The notes under the pieces were generated by a model. The model had not been told where the DNA came from, made no database searches, and saw only the letters and a program-made list of their open reading frames with translations. DNA of 64,000 nucleotides, taken from an uncultured Acidobacteriota bacterium (GTDB lineage: Bacteria > Acidobacteriota > UBA4820 > DSQY01). This document shows positions 21,787 to 31,200 of the stretch, one piece after another. Position 1 is the first letter of the stretch; each line of letters opens with the position of its first letter. The DNA lies in contig CAVYWK010000021.1 of the NCBI GenBank assembly GCA_963772255.1, forward strand, positions 211,462 through 275,461. Reading direction: 5' to 3'. A program made the position numbers and the translations under genes.

Positions 21787-22626
21787 GTGCAATTGACCGT
21801 TCTGGTAGACAACAACACCCTCATCGACCGCTACTTTCAAGGCGAACCGGGCATCTCGTTCTTCATCCGGGACGGCGAGCGGCGCATCCTTTTTGACACC
21901 GGCTATTCCGGCCTCTTCCTGGCCAACGCGCGAAAGATGGACATCGACCTCCGGCGCCTCGACTGGGTCGTCCTCTCCCACGGGCACCTGGACCACACCT
22001 GGGGGCTCGATCCCCTCATCAGGCTGTTCACGGAAGCGGCCATCGAGGGGCAATCGGTCGAGCGCCCCACCGTCCTGGGCCACCCGGCCGTCCTGGGTTC
22101 GAAGCGGATCGACGCCCTTCCGAACATCGGAAGCGCCCTCTCGGAAGAAAAGATCTCGCCGCACTTCCGCCTCCGGTTTAGCCGCGAGCCGGTCTGGCTG
22201 ACGGAGCGTCTGGTCTTCCTCGGGGAAATTCCCAGGATTCTCGAATTCGAAGCAGCGCGCCCTCTGGGCGAGGTGATGACGAGGCAGGGACCGGAGCCAG
22301 ACCCGCTGGCGGACGATTCGGCCCTGGCTTACCGGTCGCAAGGCGGCCTCGTCCTCATCACCGGCTGTGCGCACGCGGGGATCTGCAACACCATCGAGCA
22401 CGCCCGCCGAGTCTGCGGCGAGGAGCGGGTTGCGGATGTCATCGGCGGGTTCCACCTGCTGGCGCCGCCGGCGGAGCGCATGGATGAGACCGTGAGGCGT
22501 TTGGAGGCCTCGGGGGTACGCATGCTGCACCCCTGCCACTGCACCGACCTATCCAGCAAGGTAGCTCTGGCCCGACGCCTTCCCGTCGAGGAGGTGGGCG
22601 TGGGGCTGCGCCTGGAATACTGCTAG
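21787..22626 (+). CDS. MBL-fold metallo-hydrolase
   Basis: LFDTG, SHGHLDHTWG, TGCAH, GGFHL, PCHCT. Confidence 0.88.
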   Translation: MQLTVLVDNNTLIDRYFQGEPGISFFIRDGERRILFDTGYSGLFLANARKMDIDLRRLDWVVLSHGHLDHTWGLDPLIRLFTEAAIEGQSVERPTVLGHPAVLGSKRIDALPNIGSALSEEKISPHFRLRFSREPVWLTERLVFLGEIPRILEFEAARPLGEVMTRQGPEPDPLADDSALAYRSQGGLVLITGCAHAGICNTIEHARRVCGEERVADVIGGFHLLAPPAERMDETVRRLEASGVRMLHPCHCTDLSSKVALARRLPVEEVGVGLRLEYC

Positions 22627-22782
22627 CGGACTTGCCCGATGGCTTCTCTGGCGCCAAGTCGAGACACGTCGCCCGATGGACCGGCAAAGACCGCACCGGC
22701 GCATGGGCCAAGCCGCCTGCCCAGCGCTCCGGTTGAACCCGTCGGCTTTTCCCCCAACTCGCCCCAGGCTTTACAGAATCGC

Positions 22783-22812
22783 TTGACAGGTCTGCGGGGC
22801 GCGCCGCATACT
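22783..22812 (+). promoter_or_regulatory. Putative sigma70 promoter of gltA
   Basis: TTGACA-18-CATACT about 180 nt upstream of the ATG. Confidence 0.45.
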
Positions 22813-22991
22813 TTCCCCTAGTTTCGGGGGATACCTTCCTTCTGGCATTGGGTCCAAGGATGGGCGGCCCGCGCGAGGTTCGCTCTTCAGGCATCCTCCA
22901 AAATGGGTTCGCACCGCGGGTCGGCCGCGTGGCGAATGGGGAGGACCGGGGGCCGACTCCCCCGGGCGGTCGCAACATTTGGAGGTGTCGG

Positions 22992-24272
22992 ATGTCCAAG
23001 CTCAAAGAAACCCTTGCAAATCAAATCCCCGCCATGCGGAACGACATCAAGGCTTTCGTCAAGGAGCACGGCGCGAAGGTCATTGGCGAGCTCACCATCG
23101 GTGCCGCTTTCGGCGGCATGCGCGGGCTCAAGGCCATGGTCTGCGACACCTCCGAGGTGCCGCCGGATAAGGGTCTCATCATCCGCGGCATTCCCATCGC
23201 CGAGTTGACGGGCAAGCTGCCCGAAGAGATCTTCTGGCTCCTGTGCGTGGGCACGCTCCCCAACGCCGCCGAGCTCAAGGACCTCCAGGAGGACCTGAAA
23301 GCCCGCGCCAAGAAGATCCCCGCCTACGCATTCAGCGTCCTGGACGCCATGCCGAAGGACTCTCACCCCATGTGCCAGCTCGATACGGCCATCCTGGCGC
23401 TCGAGCGCGAGTCCGAGTTCCGCGCGCGCTACAGCGCAGGCATGAAGAAGGACGAGTACTGGGAGCCCATGCTCGAAGACTCCCTCAACATCCTGGCGTG
23501 GATGCCCGAGATCGCGGCCTACATCTACCGCAAGAGCTTCGACAAGGGCCCCCGCATTCCCGCGGATCCCAACCTCGACTGGGGCGGCAACTACGCTCAC
23601 ATGCTGGGCATTCCCGATCCCACGGGCGAGTTCAAGAACCTCATGCGCCTCTATCTGACCCTGCACAGCGACCACGAGGGCGGCAACGTTTCGGCCCACA
23701 CCTGCCATTGCGTCGGGTCGGCCCTCTCCGATGCCTACTACTCCGTCTCCGCGGGCCTCAACGGCCTGGCGGGCCCCCTGCACGGCCTCGCCAACCAGGA
23801 GTGCCTGGCGTGGATCCTGGAGACCATGGAGAAGTTCCACGGCGCTCCCTCAGAAGAAGACCTCTCCAAGTACGCCCAGGACACGCTGAATTCCGGGAAG
23901 GTGGTGCCCGGGTACGGCCACGCCGTGCTGCGCATCACGGACCCGCGCTTCGACGCCTTCCACGCCTTCGGCGCCAGGGTCTGCCCCGATGACCCGGCCT
24001 ACAAGACCATGGCCCGCGTCTTCACGGTGGTCCCCGAGGTCCTCAAGCAGGTCCAGAAGATCAAGGATCCCTGGCCGAACGTGGACGCCGCCTCCGGATG
24101 CCTCCTCTACCATTTCGGCATGAAGGAGTTCAGCTATTACACCGTGCTGTTCTCCGTGAGCCGCACCATGGGCATGGCCTCCCAGCTCGTGGTCGCCCGC
24201 GCATGGGGCGAGGCCATCGAGCGCCCCAAGTCCATGCCCACGGAGTGGTTCAAGAAGCAGGCAGCGAAGTAA
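22992..24272 (+). CDS. gltA: Citrate (Si)-synthase, eukaryotic/mitochondrial type
   Basis: GGMRGL, LHSDHEGGNVSAH, GLAGPLHGLANQE, PGYGHAVLR, WPNVDA, ERPKS; GGAGG SD. Confidence 0.92.
   Translation: MSKLKETLANQIPAMRNDIKAFVKEHGAKVIGELTIGAAFGGMRGLKAMVCDTSEVPPDKGLIIRGIPIAELTGKLPEEIFWLLCVGTLPNAAELKDLQEDLKARAKKIPAYAFSVLDAMPKDSHPMCQLDTAILALERESEFRARYSAGMKKDEYWEPMLEDSLNILAWMPEIAAYIYRKSFDKGPRIPADPNLDWGGNYAHMLGIPDPTGEFKNLMRLYLTLHSDHEGGNVSAHTCHCVGSALSDAYYSVSAGLNGLAGPLHGLANQECLAWILETMEKFHGAPSEEDLSKYAQDTLNSGKVVPGYGHAVLRITDPRFDAFHAFGARVCPDDPAYKTMARVFTVVPEVLKQVQKIKDPWPNVDAASGCLLYHFGMKEFSYYTVLFSVSRTMGMASQLVVARAWGEAIERPKSMPTEWFKKQAAK
24204..24271 (+). repeat. 68-bp gltA 3' end, copy 1 (copy 2 at 25384-25451)
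   Basis: Exact direct repeat TGGGGCGAGGCC...GCAGCGAAGTA. Confidence 0.95.
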
Positions 24273-24274
24273 TC

Positions 24275-24306
24275 GAGCCAACGAGTCAACGAGTCAACGA
24301 GTCAAC
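24275..24306 (+). repeat. 8-mer tandem repeat (GAGTCAAC)
   Basis: GAGCCAAC GAGTCAAC GAGTCAAC GAGTCAAC directly after the gltA stop. Confidence 0.85.
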
Positions 24307-24310
24307 ACAC

Positions 24311-24340
24311 GAAGGGCGGGACGAAAGTCCCGCCCTTTCT
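24311..24340 (+). terminator. Intrinsic terminator after gltA
   Basis: AAGGGCGGGAC-GAAA-GTCCCGCCCTT-TCT. Confidence 0.85.
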
Positions 24341-24406
24341 GCGTCAGGTTGTCCCGCAGGGGCCGGTGGGCCTATATTTTCTCCAAGTCATTCCCAGGAG
24401 GTCCCC

Positions 24407-24775
24407 ATTCGCTTCGCTTCCCTAACCTTCCTGCTGGTCGCGGTTCTCCTCGCCGCGGCGGCCTGCGCGACGCCCCGGCTCCAGGTGGCCGATCCATCCA
24501 CCCTTCTCCACGGAGATCTCTCCTTCCTTTCCGATGGGGCCACAACGCTGGAGGAGGTTCTGCTCAAACTGGGGGAACCCTCGGCGCGGTTCGAATGCGA
24601 CCGCATTCTGACCTATCCCATTCGCGCCGACGCCACCGGCGACTGGCACTTGGGGACGCTCCCTCCCGCTCCCTCCGGCGAATTCCGGGAGTGGTCCTCT
24701 GGCACAGGTAGCTTGGTCCTCGTCTTCGGGGCTGACGTCGTCCTCAAGCGCCATAGCCTAGTAGTGCCCAAATGA
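24407..24775 (+). CDS. Lipoprotein, SmpA/BamE-like
   Basis: Lipobox LAAAAC and GATTLEEVLLKLGEP. AGGAGG is followed by ATT rather than ATG. Confidence 0.6.
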   Translation: MRFASLTFLLVAVLLAAAACATPRLQVADPSTLLHGDLSFLSDGATTLEEVLLKLGEPSARFECDRILTYPIRADATGDWHLGTLPPAPSGEFREWSSGTGSLVLVFGADVVLKRHSLVVPK

Positions 24776-25224
24776 CAGGGTGCCGCTCCCTGGGCACGGC
24801 TGCCACCCTGGCTGCGCTGCTCCTCCTGCCCGCCTCCGGGTGCCTATGGATTCCGACTCCCGAGCACGGGCTACTAGAGGGACGAGGAGCCATCGGCCCC
24901 CAGGAGACTGCCCTTCTGCAGGAAGGGACCACCACCCGCGAAGAGGTACTGCTGAAGTTCGGGGAGCCCGACGCCCGCCGAGACAGCGATCGCGTATTCG
25001 CCTACCACTGGACCGTGGCCCACGGCTACATCGCCGTGGGCGCCTATTACTCGGGCACGGTTGCCCCGGTACGTAAACACTACCTCCTGATGCTGGCCTT
25101 TGACGACACGGGGACCCTGCTCCGGTGGGAACTCCTCGAGTGCGTTTTCGCATCGGCGGAGGGCCTCCTCGATAAGTGGGCAAGGGGATCCCCTCCGCCG
25201 CCCTCTCCACCTCCCCCGGGCTGA
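24772..25224 (+). CDS. Lipoprotein, SmpA/BamE-like (paralog of the upstream gene)
   Basis: Lipobox ASGC; GTTTREEVLLKFGEP; LxFDDxGxL; ATGA overlap. Confidence 0.7.
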   Translation: MTGCRSLGTAATLAALLLLPASGCLWIPTPEHGLLEGRGAIGPQETALLQEGTTTREEVLLKFGEPDARRDSDRVFAYHWTVAHGYIAVGAYYSGTVAPVRKHYLLMLAFDDTGTLLRWELLECVFASAEGLLDKWARGSPPPPSPPPPG

Positions 25225-25349
25225 GCTAAAATCGCACCGACGGCCCCGGCCAAGCGTCCGGGGCACCCTATTCCGAGCAGCCTCCGTCGCGGCCATTTCC
25301 CGTGTCAGATGGGCTCAAGGGAGATGGTCCAGCTCCGGCGGCGCCAGCC

Positions 25350-25452
25350 TCAGAACGCGTAACCGATGAAGAAATAGATCTGGTGGGGCGAGGCCATCGA
25401 GCGCCCCAAGTCCATGCCCACGGAGTGGTTCAAGAAGCAGGCAGCGAAGTAG
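25350..25452. repeat. Fused copy of the tamA 3' end (minus strand) and the gltA 3' end (plus strand)
   Basis: 25352-25391 matches 26396-26435 at 38/40; 25384-25451 is identical to 24204-24271. Confidence 0.92.
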
Positions 25453-25543
25453 TGGATGGTGGGATAGGGAGAGCGGGAGATGGGGAGGGAACCCTGAACT
25501 CCTCGCCCGCCGGTTCCTAATCCTTCCTCTTGCGACAAAGCAT

Positions 25544-25574
25544 AAGGGCGGGGCGGTTGCCCCGCCCTTTTTCT
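25544..25574. terminator. Terminator hairpin, possibly bidirectional
   Basis: AAGGGCGGGGC-GGTT-GCCCCGCCCTT-TTTCT. Confidence 0.8.
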
Positions 25575-25594
25575 GTTGGCGCTAACCGGCCCGT

Positions 25595-26167
25595 TCAGGC
25601 CGACGGGGGGTCGGCGTGCGGGATGGCGCTCAGATAGGCGTAAATGGCCTTGAGGTCCTTGTCGGTCAGCTTGCTGTAAGTGGGCCAGGGCATGACCTGC
25701 AAGAGTTGTCCGGGGTTGTCCGGATCGACGCCCGTCCGCATGACGCCGACGAACTCATCCAGCGTAAGATCCGCGGGCAGACCCGAGGTTGCATTGGGAG
25801 TGATGTTCCTGGAAACAAAGGGGCCGAACTGCTGCCCGCCTGCGAGGTAGTTGGTGGTGTTGATCTGCTCGGGTTGGCCTAAAAAGGGATTGCCGCCCGG
25901 CGCGTAAGAGGGCATGGAATGGCAGTCGTTGCAACCGCCCACGGCATTCACGAGGTAGCTGCCGTAGCCTACCCAGGCCCTGTCCTTCATCTGGTAGTTG
26001 AGGGCCACCGGGGCGATGGCCAGGCCCCGTTTTACGAGATGGTTGGGGAAAGCCAAGCCGTCCTCGTTCTTCCCGCCGCCGTCCTGGGCTGGAATTACAA
26101 GAGCGAAGGCCATCAGCATGACCGCGACGGCCGTCGCAAACACCACCGCCATAGACTTCTTGCTCAC
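25595..26167 (-). CDS. Periplasmic monoheme cytochrome c
   Basis: Signal peptide, CNDCH, NITP, distal MPW, DLKAIYAYL; AAGGAG SD before GTG. Confidence 0.85.
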   Translation of the reverse strand: MSKKSMAVVFATAVAVMLMAFALVIPAQDGGGKNEDGLAFPNHLVKRGLAIAPVALNYQMKDRAWVGYGSYLVNAVGGCNDCHSMPSYAPGGNPFLGQPEQINTTNYLAGGQQFGPFVSRNITPNATSGLPADLTLDEFVGVMRTGVDPDNPGQLLQVMPWPTYSKLTDKDLKAIYAYLSAIPHADPPSA

Positions 26168-26393
26168 GCTATCTCCTTTCCCAGATGACCCGTCCGACAC
26201 CCACGCCGGACCGGGGCCACCCGTTTCTTGCCGTCCGATGCTCCGGGTTGCCAGAACGTCCAAGACGACCCGTCCATTCCTCGGGAATGGGCGGCCTCCT
26301 TGGCGATCGGGTGAATGCGTGGGGGGTCACGGCGACAACCCCATGGAGCCGTTGGGCCGATCGGTGCACGCGAAAATGGTGGGCCTCGGCGCA

Positions 26394-28209
26394 CTAGAAC
26401 GCGTAGCCGATGAAGAAATAGATCTGGTAGGGCGACGGGTTCTTCGGATCCGCCCTCAGGCGCCAGGCCAGGTCCAACCCGATGGGTCCCACGGGCGTCT
26501 GGTACCGCACCCCCAATCCGGCCCCCGCGCGAAGTTCTTCGGACCTGATCTTGAAGGGTTTCGCGAAGGCGTTGCCCGCGTCGGCGAAGACCAGTCCCGT
26601 CAGTTCGCCTTTGAGGGGAAACCTCAGTTCGGTGGACGCTTCCAGAAGGCCGTCCCCGCCGACCAGGGCCCCGTTGGCATCCATGGGCCCCAGGCTGTTA
26701 TACGCATAGCCCCGGATGCTGTTGGCGCCGCCGGCGTAGAATCGCCGGGACAGTGGCACCTCGTCCCTGGACGCGCCGGCGTAGATGGCCCCCGCCTTGA
26801 GCCTGAACCCCAGCACCCAGCCTTGCCCCAAACTCACGAACTGCCGCCCCTCCAAGATCGATTTGGTAAAGAACGGGCCGCTGTGGTCCAACACCTGGGT
26901 GGGTTCGACATAGAGGTTCAGGATGGTCCCGCGGGTGGGGTTGAGGGGCTCGTCGGTGGATCGGTACATGACTCCCACGGCCACGGAGGCCATGGTGGCG
27001 ATGTCCCGGGCCCCGTTGTCGATGGCGTCTTCGAGGGCCTGGTCCGGAGTGAATTGGAGCACCCGCTCCAGAACGAGAAAGGAGCTCCCCTGCAGGTGCG
27101 GCGTGAACTGCCGCTGGAGACCCGCTTGGGCCTTCAGGTAGCCGTAGCGGAAGTCCGCTTCCACCCTCTGGCCGAAAGTCAGATCGGCCAGGCCGGTCGT
27201 CTTTCTATCCCAAAGATAGGGGCGGCGCAGGTAGGTCTGAAGTCGGCTGTCGATGGCCGACCCCTTGGCTTCGGCGCCCACCTAGCAGTGTGTGGTTGGC
27301 GAAGCGCAGGGTCTCCCATCGCACCAGGCCCCGGATTCGGTCCTCCGACCCATAACCCAGGCCCAGTCTTATGCGGTGAAGTTTCCCCTCCCTCAGTCTC
27401 ACGCGGACATCCACCGTCCCTGGACCTGAGCCGGGTTGGTTCACGAACGTCACCGCATCGAAGAGCCCCAGCTTGTAAAGCGCGTCCCTGCTCTCCTCCA
27501 CCTTGGATTGGCGGTAGAGATCCCCAGGGGCAAAGGCGAGCGCCCGCCGCAAGACGCGCTCCTCGGAGAGCTTCATACCCAGGAAGGTAATGGTGCCCAC
27601 CGTGCAGCGCTCACCAGGCTTGACGGTGTAGCTCGCTGCAGCGGTATGGTCCGCCAAGTCCACGACGGCTTCGGGAATCACCTCGGCAAAGGGTCGTCCG
27701 TCCTCCCGAAGACGGAACAGGATCAGGGTGGCCGATGCTTCGTAGTCGTCCGCCGAAAAAACGGCCCCTTTTTTGAGGGGGAGGTCCTTGGCGAGGGCGG
27801 TCCGATCGATCTCATCGGGCGGCTCTCCCTCTCGCGCGCGAACGGACACGGACGCCACGCGGCACGGCGAGCCCTCCGACACGCGCAAAATGGCTGGCTC
27901 CGCGCCGCTGGGCGGAAGGATCTCGGTGGTCGCCTCAAAGTACCCCTGGCGCTGGTAGAAGAGACGCACGGCCTCGGCCTTGGCGTCCAGGTCCCGGCGT
28001 TCGGCTCTGGGCTTGCGCCCGAGGGTCTTGTCGAGGAGGGAACGATCCACCCCCGCGGCTTCAAACACTTGCGCTTGAGGAAATGCCGAAACGCCTTCAA
28101 GGCGAAGGGGAACGAGGTCCTTGGGGGGGCTCTTGGGCGCGGCGACGGACCGGGTGGACACGATCAGCGATCCCGTGAGCACCAGGGCGAGAAGGGCACG
28201 GCGGGACAT
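26394..28209 (-). CDS. tamA: TamA/Omp85-family outer membrane protein (frameshift near 27280)
   Basis: POTRA domains, RFYAGGANSIRGY, TPVGPIGLD, C-terminal F. Confidence 0.88.
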
Positions 28210-31200
28210 CAGTACCGCCGTTCCCAGAAGAGGTCGATGCCCGTGGTGCCCTTGCTGTTGCTGCCCGTCTGGACGCTCCAGTTCTTGTCGATGCGGTACC
28301 GCAGGTTGACCCACCACTCGGGGAGGGCGCCGAAGGTCTGCTGGTATTCCAAGATGGCCTTGTCCCCCAAGTACTTGCTGAATCCCAATTGGGAATTCGC
28401 CCCCACCCCCACCACCACGGAATCGAGCCCCAGCGCCTCCTTGGCCGACTCCACCAGGGGTGAACTCCCGTAGAGGGTCACGGCCCCTGCTGCCGCCGAG
28501 TACTGCGCGCTGTCCCCCGAGCCCATCTCGTTGGCCCGGTGTCCCAGAACGAGCACGGAGAGGATGTCGGCCTGGTCCATGGGCGGCCGCGACGTGAGGC
28601 TGAGTTCGGGCTTGCTCGCCCGCCCCGTGAGGTGGACCTCCACATCCGTGTCCCGGGTCTGGTAGAGGGCCTTCACGTTGAGATAGGGCGTCAGGTCCGT
28701 GCCCCCGTCAAAGGAAACGCGGGATTCCTGAAGCTCGAATTTCTTGCCCTGGAAGAGGAATCGGCCCTGGAGTACCTCGAGGCTTCCCTCCAAGGTCGGC
28801 CCCCGTTCCGTGAAGCGGGCGGTGAGCGCACCGGAAAGCTCCGCCAGGAGGTTTCGGCTACTGATCCAGAGGCCTCCTTCGCTCCGAAGCTGGACTTTAC
28901 CTCGGAGGGGACCGATGACGGACGCCTCTGCGTCTTCCGTCGGAGCATAAGGGGAACCGGGCGGGGCGTTGATGAACCGGACCGTATCGGGCAGGGGTTT
29001 TCGCCGTTCCAGCTCGGGAAGCTGGATGCGGCCCTTGGTCAATGTTGCGCTCCCCTCCAAAACCGGCCGGGCGAGGGTCCCCGAGAGGGTGGCCTTGAAG
29101 TCGGCCACTCCGTCCATGTCCCGTCCGACGACGAAGGGAATCGCGTGACCCTCCGCGACGAACCGGTACTCCTCGGGCCAGAACCCTTTGAATCGTACGA
29201 ATCCGCTCCCCGTCGCCTCACCGCCCTTGGGTGTGGTGGCCCGGGCCTTCTCCACCACGAGGCGATCGCCCTCGGCCCTGAAGGAGGCGGTGATGGGGGT
29301 GATGACCTGGTCGCTGTTGACATAGCGGTAGAGCCCCTCCGCCAGAGTTCCGCCGCCGTGGAGAACCGGGGCGCTCACCTGCCCCGACCAGGTGAGATCG
29401 GCGTCCAGGAACCCCGCCACCGTCCCCACCGTGGAGGGAATGGGGAAGAGCGCCAGGGGGAAGTGCTTGGCCGTGAGGGTTCCCGCCAGCGGGGCCGAGC
29501 TGAGAGGTCCCTCCAGACCCAACTGACCCGAGGTGCTGACTCGGCTCTCCTTTTTGACCAGCGTGAACCCGGACCAGGCCACGGCCTTCGAGTTCCAGGT
29601 GAGTCGTGCCTGGCCCTCCTGGGTGAAGGTCCTGCCGAGAGCCTCCAGCTTCACCCCCTCCACCTCGAGGTCGAGGCCTCCGGGTCCCCACCCGCCCCTC
29701 GCCTGCAGGGCCACGCGCCGGTCCGCGCCGGCCTCCATCTCCAGTGCGCCTTGGACGGCCGACGGCTTCCCGCGAAGCGTGAGCTTCCCCGTCCCCCAAA
29801 GGTGGCCCTGGTGCGAGACCCCGGTCCAGGCCAAGACAAGGTCACTGCCGGGGCCCTCCGGGTTCCACCGGCCGCGAATTTCCACCCGGTCCAGCGCGAA
29901 CCCGCCCCACGCCGCCGCGGAGAGGGTGGCTTGCCCTTCAGCGGCGAGGGCTCCCAGGCGTCCCGTGATCTGGACCGAGGACCTCAGAGCCCCCGAGGGC
30001 AGCCCTTCACCCAAGAGGGGGCGCAGGCTGGACAGGTTTTCCACCTCCAGGTCCAGTGGGCCTTCTACTCTGCCGTCGCGGTGAAAGGTCCCGGCCAGGC
30101 GGGCCGTTCCCGCGCTCGTATCGAGCGCCACGGGATCCAAAACGACGGCTTCCGGCGAAAAGCGGACGCGGGCACGCAGGGGATGTAAGGCGATTCCGGC
30201 CCAGCGGCTCTCGTTCAAGGCCAGGTCCAGGGTCCCCGATGAAGTTCCCTCGACGGTGTAGCGGGCTTCTCCTCCCAAGGTTCCAGGCTTGCCAGGAAGC
30301 AGGCCCCAGGCCGATGGGTCCACCCCATCAAACCGGATGGTGCACCCAGGGAAGTGAGTGCTCATGGGTCCCAGGGCGACATCCCACCGTCCGCCCACCG
30401 CGTCGGCGCCCTTCGCTTGGATGGAGAAGGTCGCGCCCTCGCCCCAGGCGGCGAAGTGCTCCATGGGCCACGGGCCCTCGGGCGGACGAATGGGGGCGGG
30501 CAGGGGTACATCCACGCCCAGGGCATGGAGTAGGTCGAACACTTGCACCCGGGGACCCGACGCCTCCGTGCGCCAGCCCCCGCGGCCCAGGTCCACTCGG
30601 ACCGAGCCTCTGCATGGTCCTGACAGGGGGGCGTTCCAATCGCCCGAAGCCTCCAGGCGCTCGCCTGACCCCGACCCGGCGAGCGCGGCCGAGTCTACAG
30701 GGAGGCCCCACACCGTGGATCGAGCGAGGCGGGCTTTCGCCTCCCATCGTTGCAAGGCGCCCCGCCGCACCTGGACTCCCCAGGTTCCCTCGCCCGACAC
30801 TTGGGTCTCGCGGCCCCTGGGCGCGGCCCAAAAGGGGGCGAGGTCGGCGCCCGTCGTGCGGCAATCGCCGGTTAGGTCAAGCCCCTCGGGGAGAAACTCC
30901 GCCTTCCCTTTCGAAGACACGGGACCCAATCCGGCGGCATGCATATCCGCTTGGTAGGCCAGCGAGCGTAGGTCTCCTTCCACCTGGACAGAGCCGTTGA
31001 GCTGCAGATCCGGCGCGCCCGTCCATGTGGAGCTGACCTCTCGGAGGGCCAGGGGCGCCAGCTGAACGGAGGCGTGGTACCGCGGGACCTGTCTCCCCAC
31101 CCATCCATGCCCCGCGGGCCTTCACGCGGGAGCGTGGCGAGGCGACCGCCAGGTCGAAGCGGAGGTCCCCGGACTGCGCGATATCAAGGGTTCCGGAGGC

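Follow-up and report, generated by a model that had tools for sequence, protein, structure and literature searches.

Homology-facilitated illegitimate recombination is said to have been described by de Vries and Wackernagel in 2002, by Prudhomme et al. in 2002 and by Meier and Wackernagel in 2003, and microhomology at join points is known from bacterial tandem duplications. The locus considered here lies in a stretch of 64,000 nucleotides (nt) from an uncultured Acidobacteriota bacterium, referred to in the following as the window. The window corresponds to positions 211462-275461 of contig C21 of G000, a metagenome-assembled genome (MAG) of 3.49 Mb in 38 contigs, with a completeness of 86% and a contamination of 3.75%. 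Between the convergent genes gltA, which encodes citrate synthase, and tamA, which encodes an Omp85 protein, two mutually unrelated sets of accessory genes are stacked in one slot: a pair of lipoprotein genes and a cytochrome c gene. Between the two sets, a copy of the 3' end of tamA is fused to a copy of the 3' end of gltA. These tandem slot alleles probably arose by one illegitimate join and one homologous exchange with the DNA of a closely related strain. The stack reveals no new mechanism; it adds an example to processes already known, additive integration of the Campbell type or facilitated by homology.

In a conjugation study with E. coli, 56 of 60 clones contained a duplicated homologous segment, which was ascribed to the single crossover of a circle; the true homology-facilitated illegitimate events were deletions (PMC3240628). 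As in Campbell-type integration, direct repeats of a homologous segment flank the insert at the present locus (68 nt of gltA at a spacing of 1180 nt), a putative closure joint lies inside the insert, and a site-specific enzyme is unnecessary. The E. coli circle, however, was a plasmid and the duplications measured 109-950 bp (PMC3240628), whereas the putative circle of the present locus would be a chromosomal fragment closed at a microhomology of 8 nt, with 68 nt available for the crossover. Homology-facilitated illegitimate recombination resembles the locus in that one end would lie in homologous DNA, the other is joined at a short GC-rich microhomology, and genes of a relative are gained. 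Its described products usually lack some recipient DNA, whereas here none was lost and 68 + 40 nt were duplicated.

The orphan arrays of type VI secretion, Rhs and contact-dependent inhibition systems are also similar. According to a study on Vibrio cholerae, a new module is placed beside a conserved gene, so that the old module and a displaced 3' remnant come to lie further downstream. No integrase is involved, and homology-facilitated illegitimate recombination was proposed as the model for the additive arrays of orphan immunity genes (PMC5361080). Those arrays are recurrent, selected through the conflict of toxin and immunity, and anchored on one side, in contrast to the single event at the present locus, which lies between two convergent genes with housekeeping and envelope functions, left remnants of both and brought in unrelated cargo. 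In a tandem duplication, too, the end of one unit is joined to the start of the next at a few common bases, but the two units of the present locus carry different genes. Integron gene cassettes are likewise accessory genes stacked at one site; unlike in integrons, no integrase, attI or attC was found in the searched surroundings of the slot.

Repeats and joint in the gltA-tamA slot

The elements of the slot follow each other in the order gltA, octamer repeats, hairpin 1, lipoprotein gene 1, lipoprotein gene 2, tamA-end copy, gltA-end copy, terminator 2, cytochrome c gene and tamA (Table 1). The last 66 coding nt of gltA and the first two nt of its stop codon recur with 68 of 68 identities; the following nucleotide completes a TAA stop in the gene and a TAG stop in the copy. 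An exact repeat of 68 nt does not arise by chance. Since an in-frame TAG precedes the copy, it cannot be translated as gltA. The tamA repeat (25352-25391 compared with 26396-26435) is identical at 38 of 40 positions; the copy ends in the stop codon TGA and the gene in TAG. One of the two mismatches is synonymous (GGC/GGT). The other is located within the octamer through which the two copies overlap, TGGGGCGA at the joint and TAGGGCGA in tamA, where the tamA-end copy agrees with gltA. A first-pass annotation made from the sequence had described this order of elements, an identical 68-bp gltA copy ending in TAG, a tamA copy with 38 of 40 matches, a synonymous change and TGA for TAG, and an overlap of the copies through a near-identical octamer; each of these descriptions was borne out. 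Neither parental gene end has been lost, which allows a reconstruction of the event at single-base resolution.

Table 1. Features of the gltA-tamA slot and its borders, numbered by position in the window
Feature	Position	Strand	Basis or remark
gltA (citrate synthase), complete	22992..24272	+	Pfam Citrate_synt, E 3.6e-92; TAA stop at 24270-24272
Repeat A, final 66 coding nt of gltA and TA of the stop	24204..24271	+	68/68 identical to 25384-25451
Octamer repeats (CAACGAGY)n, then GC-rich hairpin at 24312-24338 (terminator 1)	24276..24338	+	Same layout after gltA in G003
Promoter-like site upstream of the lipoprotein genes	24349..24378	+	TTGTCC-18-TATATT, 9/12; consensus match only
Lipoprotein gene 1, signal peptide, lipobox AAAC	24407..24775	+	No Pfam or NCBIfam hit
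Lipoprotein gene 2, lipobox ASGC, BamE-like fold	24772..25224	+	ATG overlaps the stop of gene 1
Flank of the tamA-end copy, homologous to DNA downstream of tamA in G003	25316..25349		30/34 to G003:C500 173-206
Repeat B', tamA 3'-end copy, 42 nt, 12 codons and stop TGA	25350..25391	-	38/40
Joint octamer, common to both copies	25384..25391		Sequence comparison
Repeat A', gltA 3'-end copy, 69 nt with stop TAG	25384..25452	+	Sequence comparison
Terminator 2, hairpin of 11 pairs, T runs on both strands (bidirectional)	25544..25569		81% alike to hairpin 1
Monohaem cytochrome c gene (CNDCH), N-terminal membrane or signal segment	25595..26167	-	Relatives named cytochrome c by some sources
Repeat B, true tamA 3' end	26394..26435	-	26396-26435 matched by the copy
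tamA (Omp85 barrel and POTRA)	26394..28317	-	Pfam Omp85, POTRA; two frames
tamB, upstream partner of tamA	28209..31100	-	Pfam TamB, E 2e-57

The joint is a microhomology of a few bases with no site-specific signal and no recombinase nearby. In the whole assembly, the ends of gltA and tamA are the only matches to the joint region. A crude genome-wide script revealed a copy of at least 50 nt of a gene 3' end in nearby non-coding DNA at this locus only; its 15 candidates, among which the slot locus was the longest, include several repeat hits, uninspected, on the same few ends of open reading frames (ORFs). An integrase or transposase was not found among the Pfam hits of the 16 neighbouring ORFs tested (12177-38362; 2 of the 16 had no hit), in agreement with the claim of the first-pass annotation that the stacking was integrase-free. 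A comparison of positions 22000-29000 with Rfam yielded two sub-threshold matches at chance level and neither attI nor attC. The GC content is flat across the region, which had no match in a phage collection and one weak match (67%) in a plasmid collection, to a relative of the cytochrome.

To what extent the stack is present in DNA other than the assembled MAG was judged by a comparison of the window with Logan contigs of the runs X1, X2, X4 and X7, which come from three studies; the highest share of sampled words in any one public run was 0.19. A contig of 182 nt from X2 spans positions 25307-25488 with one mismatch and no gaps. It includes 77 nt on the left of the joint and 97 nt on its right, and thus reaches unique sequence on both sides. 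As a k-mer assembler cannot create an overlap of 8 nt and the X2 contig spans the joint, the joint exists in DNA. Odd repeats in MAGs can thus be checked against the contigs of other public runs.

On the minus strand the joint creates an open frame of 62 codons (25350-25538) that ends in the C-terminal motif of TamA, QIYFFIGYAF. The chimeric product of 62 amino acids had no relative in the protein collection, where a search of this kind is uninformative, and there is no sign that the frame is a gene.

Slot alleles in related genomes and origin of the left unit

The DNA search for gltA and tamA covered 41 genomes, 6 of them of the same genus (G000 counted). Only three of the six genomes of the genus, G000, G001 and G003, had the two genes on a single contig or on contigs that overlap. 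The slot is empty in G001, where the stop of gltA on contig C61 is about 190 nt from the stop of tamA, and in G003, where the overlapping contigs C172 and C500 contain gltA, the repeats, the terminator, about 170 nt and tamA. A cytochrome-only slot was found in run X7: a contig of 574 nt from a relative, about 90% identical to the window, joins position 24336 to position 25588 and thereby gltA and its terminator to cytochrome c, and a second X7 contig connects cytochrome c to tamA. Within the genus the slot is therefore variable and occurs empty, with cytochrome c only and, in G000, stacked, as the first-pass annotation had proposed when it spoke of a variable slot.

The flank of the tamA-end copy is homologous to the DNA downstream of tamA in G003 (30 of 34 positions), whereas the flank of the resident tamA aligns with the G003-type flank only if gaps are introduced. 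The copy ends in TGA, as do the tamA genes of G001 and G003, which belong to the same genus, in contrast to the TAG of the resident tamA. Based on this flank and this stop codon, it was concluded that the tamA-end copy was not copied from the resident tamA end. The DNA that follows the complete gltA, octamers and hairpin, is G003-like as well, and together these observations identify the left unit as a slot allele of the G003 type. The earlier proposal that the allele of a relative was the source agrees with this result. In place of about 130 nt in G003 the left unit contains 976 nt (24340-25315) with the lipoprotein genes. A protein search for the slot cargoes covered 24 other genomes of the family and did not reveal lipoprotein 2 in any of them; since it is absent from the matches in these genomes, lipoprotein gene 2 is regarded as an acquisition.

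The cytochrome protein has a relative of high identity in 1 of the 24 genomes (G015, 76% amino acid identity) and weak relatives in 3 more. In G015, which belongs to a different genus, the gltA terminator is likewise followed directly by the cytochrome gene, probably with a group II intron in between. The neighbour to its right is not tamA but a large gene whose product ends in ...IEGCIYFNKGV (L032). In G011, of the same genus as G015, gltA adjoins the ...IEGCIYFNKGV gene without a cytochrome gene (L013). The G015 cytochrome gene also lies between two GC-rich hairpins, and remnants of gene ends do not occur there. The adjacency of gltA and cytochrome c in G015 is compatible with an old arrangement that was lost many times as well as with repeated transfers for which gltA was the anchor.

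As to the intron, contig G015:C52 (L033) breaks just after the gltA terminator and the start of contig G015:C194 (L032), positions 1-170, matches a group II intron 3' end (RF00029; 39.5 bits, gathering score 40, E 1.3e-6). The stop of the cytochrome gene follows after about 45 nt. The intron probably follows right after the gltA terminator.

Candidate routes of insertion and rival explanations

According to the reading that we favour, the lipoprotein allele of a related strain would have been added beside the cytochrome c allele. The left unit consists of the gltA end, the octamers, terminator 1, the two BamE-like lipoprotein genes, the tamA flank of the G003 type and the first 40 nt of a tamA end. 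At the match of 7-8 nt, (T)GGGGCGA, it is joined to the right unit, in which the 68-nt end of gltA is followed by a spacer, terminator 2, cytochrome c and the tamA end proper. We infer the route of insertion, for which there are two candidates. In Route A, the simplest one and the one proposed in the first-pass annotation, the unit of 1180 bp, from the gltA end to the tamA-end copy, would close into a circle at the microhomology. One crossover in the 68 nt of the gltA end would then insert the circle in the manner of Campbell. In Route B homology in gltA (or tamA) would provide the anchor for a linear fragment, whose far end would be joined at the microhomology. A model of the Route B type was also proposed for dimorphic loci in E. 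coli (PMC2884548). The two routes are indistinguishable here and we rate them as about equally probable. Both gltA and tamA are conserved candidate anchors; mapping of the crossover point would require the parental sequences.

The outcome was additive. Genes were gained and none was replaced, the 3' ends of both flanking genes are intact, and each cargo keeps its own terminator. The locus is a natural footprint of additive gene gain, which combined an illegitimate and a homologous recombination in an uncultured lineage of the Acidobacteriota. Accessory genes, here for cytochrome c and for BamE-like lipoproteins beside an Omp85 gene, can thus gather in a slot between convergent genes without mobile elements.

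Several points weigh against this reading. No more than 68 nt of homology would be available to the single crossover of Route A, and Route B would depend on a microhomology within the homologous region itself. The divergence of the repeats, 0 of 68 compared with 2 of 40, is not significant alone (the probability that both differences fall in the tamA repeat is 0.135); the complete identity of the gltA repeat fits a donor that was a close strain. Run X2 may share a sampling campaign with the source sample, although its contigs were still built independently from reads. The whole stack of 2.2 kb is spanned by no independent contig of X1, X2, X4 or X7, and only the MAG contig connects gltA and terminator 1 with the lipoprotein genes. 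In these four runs the lipoprotein region (24336-25306) has no or nearly no cover; at depths of 2-7 and with fragmentary contigs no conclusion was drawn from this. The comparison of the gltA-tamA interval in relatives, which the first-pass annotation had suggested, disclosed the alternative states described above but no lipoprotein-only allele of the slot, either in the 24 other family genomes or in 53 metagenome loci with related lipoproteins. Of the cassette stacking that the annotation envisaged, a stack with its joint is present at the slot; as a recurring process it has one example only.

Taken by itself as the account of the insertion, linear homology-facilitated illegitimate recombination is a route variant of the favoured reading, in which a fragment would pair via gltA or tamA and its free end would be joined at GGGGCGA. 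We consider this possible rather than probable. The gltA matches across the family are 80-92% identical at the DNA level, which makes gltA a good anchor. Ku was not found in G000 (86% complete), so that no dedicated end-joining system is visible that would close a circle. In two genera gltA adjoins cytochrome c, whose neighbour on the right differs between them. The ComEC and DprA genes are present in G000, but their presence says little because they were also matched in 10 or 11 of 14 control genomes; for the choice of route neither they nor the missing Ku are decisive. Arguing against the linear route is the E. coli study, in which the true events of this type were deletions and duplications were ascribed to circles (PMC3240628). 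A bolder reading, in which the gltA 3' end, or the ends of convergent core genes generally, serves as a recurrent homology anchor that passes small terminator-bounded cassettes between Acidobacteriota lineages and stacks them without a recombinase, is doubtful, although the adjacency of gltA and cytochrome c in two genera speaks for it; if it were true, the gltA-tamA locus would be an intermediate caught in the process.

Intragenomic tandem duplication of the unit from the gltA end to the tamA end at the microhomology, with a subsequent replacement or insertion in one copy, would give the same product, and the joint of unit end to unit start is its classic signature. However, the two units share only their ends of 68 nt and 40 nt and a hairpin that is 81% alike, and the flank of the tamA-end copy is G003-like, unlike that of the resident gene. 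Moreover, the crossover of the replacement would be confined to 40 or 68 nt, so that two rare steps would be required. We regard this explanation as improbable.

The concatenation of two strain haplotypes by the assembler, which the first-pass annotation had named as the alternative to integration, could be entertained for a MAG of the fragmentation, completeness and contamination given above, with at least one probable single-base error (in tamA). The shared joint of 8 nt is nevertheless too short for a k-mer overlap, and the contig that spans it in X2 was built from the reads of another run. An artefact of this kind is very unlikely. A dedicated recurrent cassette system with gene ends or terminator hairpins as recombination sites is hardly credible: a similar GC-rich hairpin does precede each cargo and the G015 cytochrome gene likewise lies between two of them, but the genome contains a single example, no recombinase is nearby, the joint is in coding sequence rather than at the hairpins, and G015 lacks gene-end remnants.

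Border genes, cargo and surroundings

The product of gltA is 79-97% identical in amino acid sequence, over the aligned part, to those of the genomes of 18 relatives. Between G000 and G003 the DNA identity is 92% for gltA and about 70% for tamA. The leftward gene that forms the right border contains an Omp85 barrel and POTRA domains (Pfam) and adjoins tamB; because its upstream neighbour is tamB, it was assigned as tamA. It is read in two overlapping frames, 26394-27281 and 27205-28317, which are split by one extra base near 27284, outside any homopolymer. The base at 27284 is absent from one contig each of the runs X1 and X7. Since its omission restores a continuous Omp85 protein, a sequence error is the probable explanation of the extra base and a real frameshift the less probable one. 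Among the Pfam assignments of the 16 neighbouring ORFs are a hydrolase, two-component signalling proteins, an efflux system, a TetR regulator, a metallo-beta-lactamase-fold protein, a DNA glycosylase, a pyridine nucleotide-disulphide oxidoreductase, a peroxiredoxin and a lipase, and a weak match to YhdP/DUF748 below the cut-off.

Both cargoes are accessory. The two lipoprotein genes are paralogues (39% identity) and translationally coupled. In front of lipoprotein gene 1 (24396-24409), the sequence AGGAGG precedes an ATT codon (24407) by 5 nt, and ATG, GTG and TTG are all absent before the signal peptide, which suggests a rare ATT start or a mutated start codon. The lipoproteins matched no entry of Pfam or NCBIfam, and their likeness to BamE comes from a fold search: with a model of lipoprotein 2 (predicted local distance difference test score, pLDDT, 75.7), BamE occupied 19 of the first 20 Foldseek rows, at a best E value of 1.9e-3 and query-normalised template modelling (TM) scores of 0.33-0.43. 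The BamE-like lipoprotein genes here adjoin an Omp85 gene. The family to which they belong is uncatalogued, has the conserved motif PTPEH...EEVLLKxGEP and occurs as tandem pairs and triplets in the 53 metagenome loci (L043-L095), in varied context; in none of these loci were the related pairs located beside gltA, tamA or a cytochrome gene.

For the cytochrome 2294 relatives were obtained at E<=1e-40, named cytochrome c by some sources. Relatives of the cytochrome were located in 48 genome loci, and a gltA or tamA gene was not found within 4 kb in any of them. In clusters formed at 90% the cytochrome has five member sequences and lipoprotein 2 has one, which at best hints weakly at a commoner cytochrome allele.

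The tandem octamers behind gltA (GTCAACGA / GCCAACGA, window positions 24276-24306) were also encountered right after the stop codons of several unrelated genes. Such post-stop octamers were seen in the G000 loci L002-L007 and at G003:C172 4786-4830, often ahead of a hairpin. Other tandem repeats with a period of 7-8 nt (CCCTGGTT, TCCCTGC, CTGGCTCG) are present in the intergenic DNA of G000 and G011.

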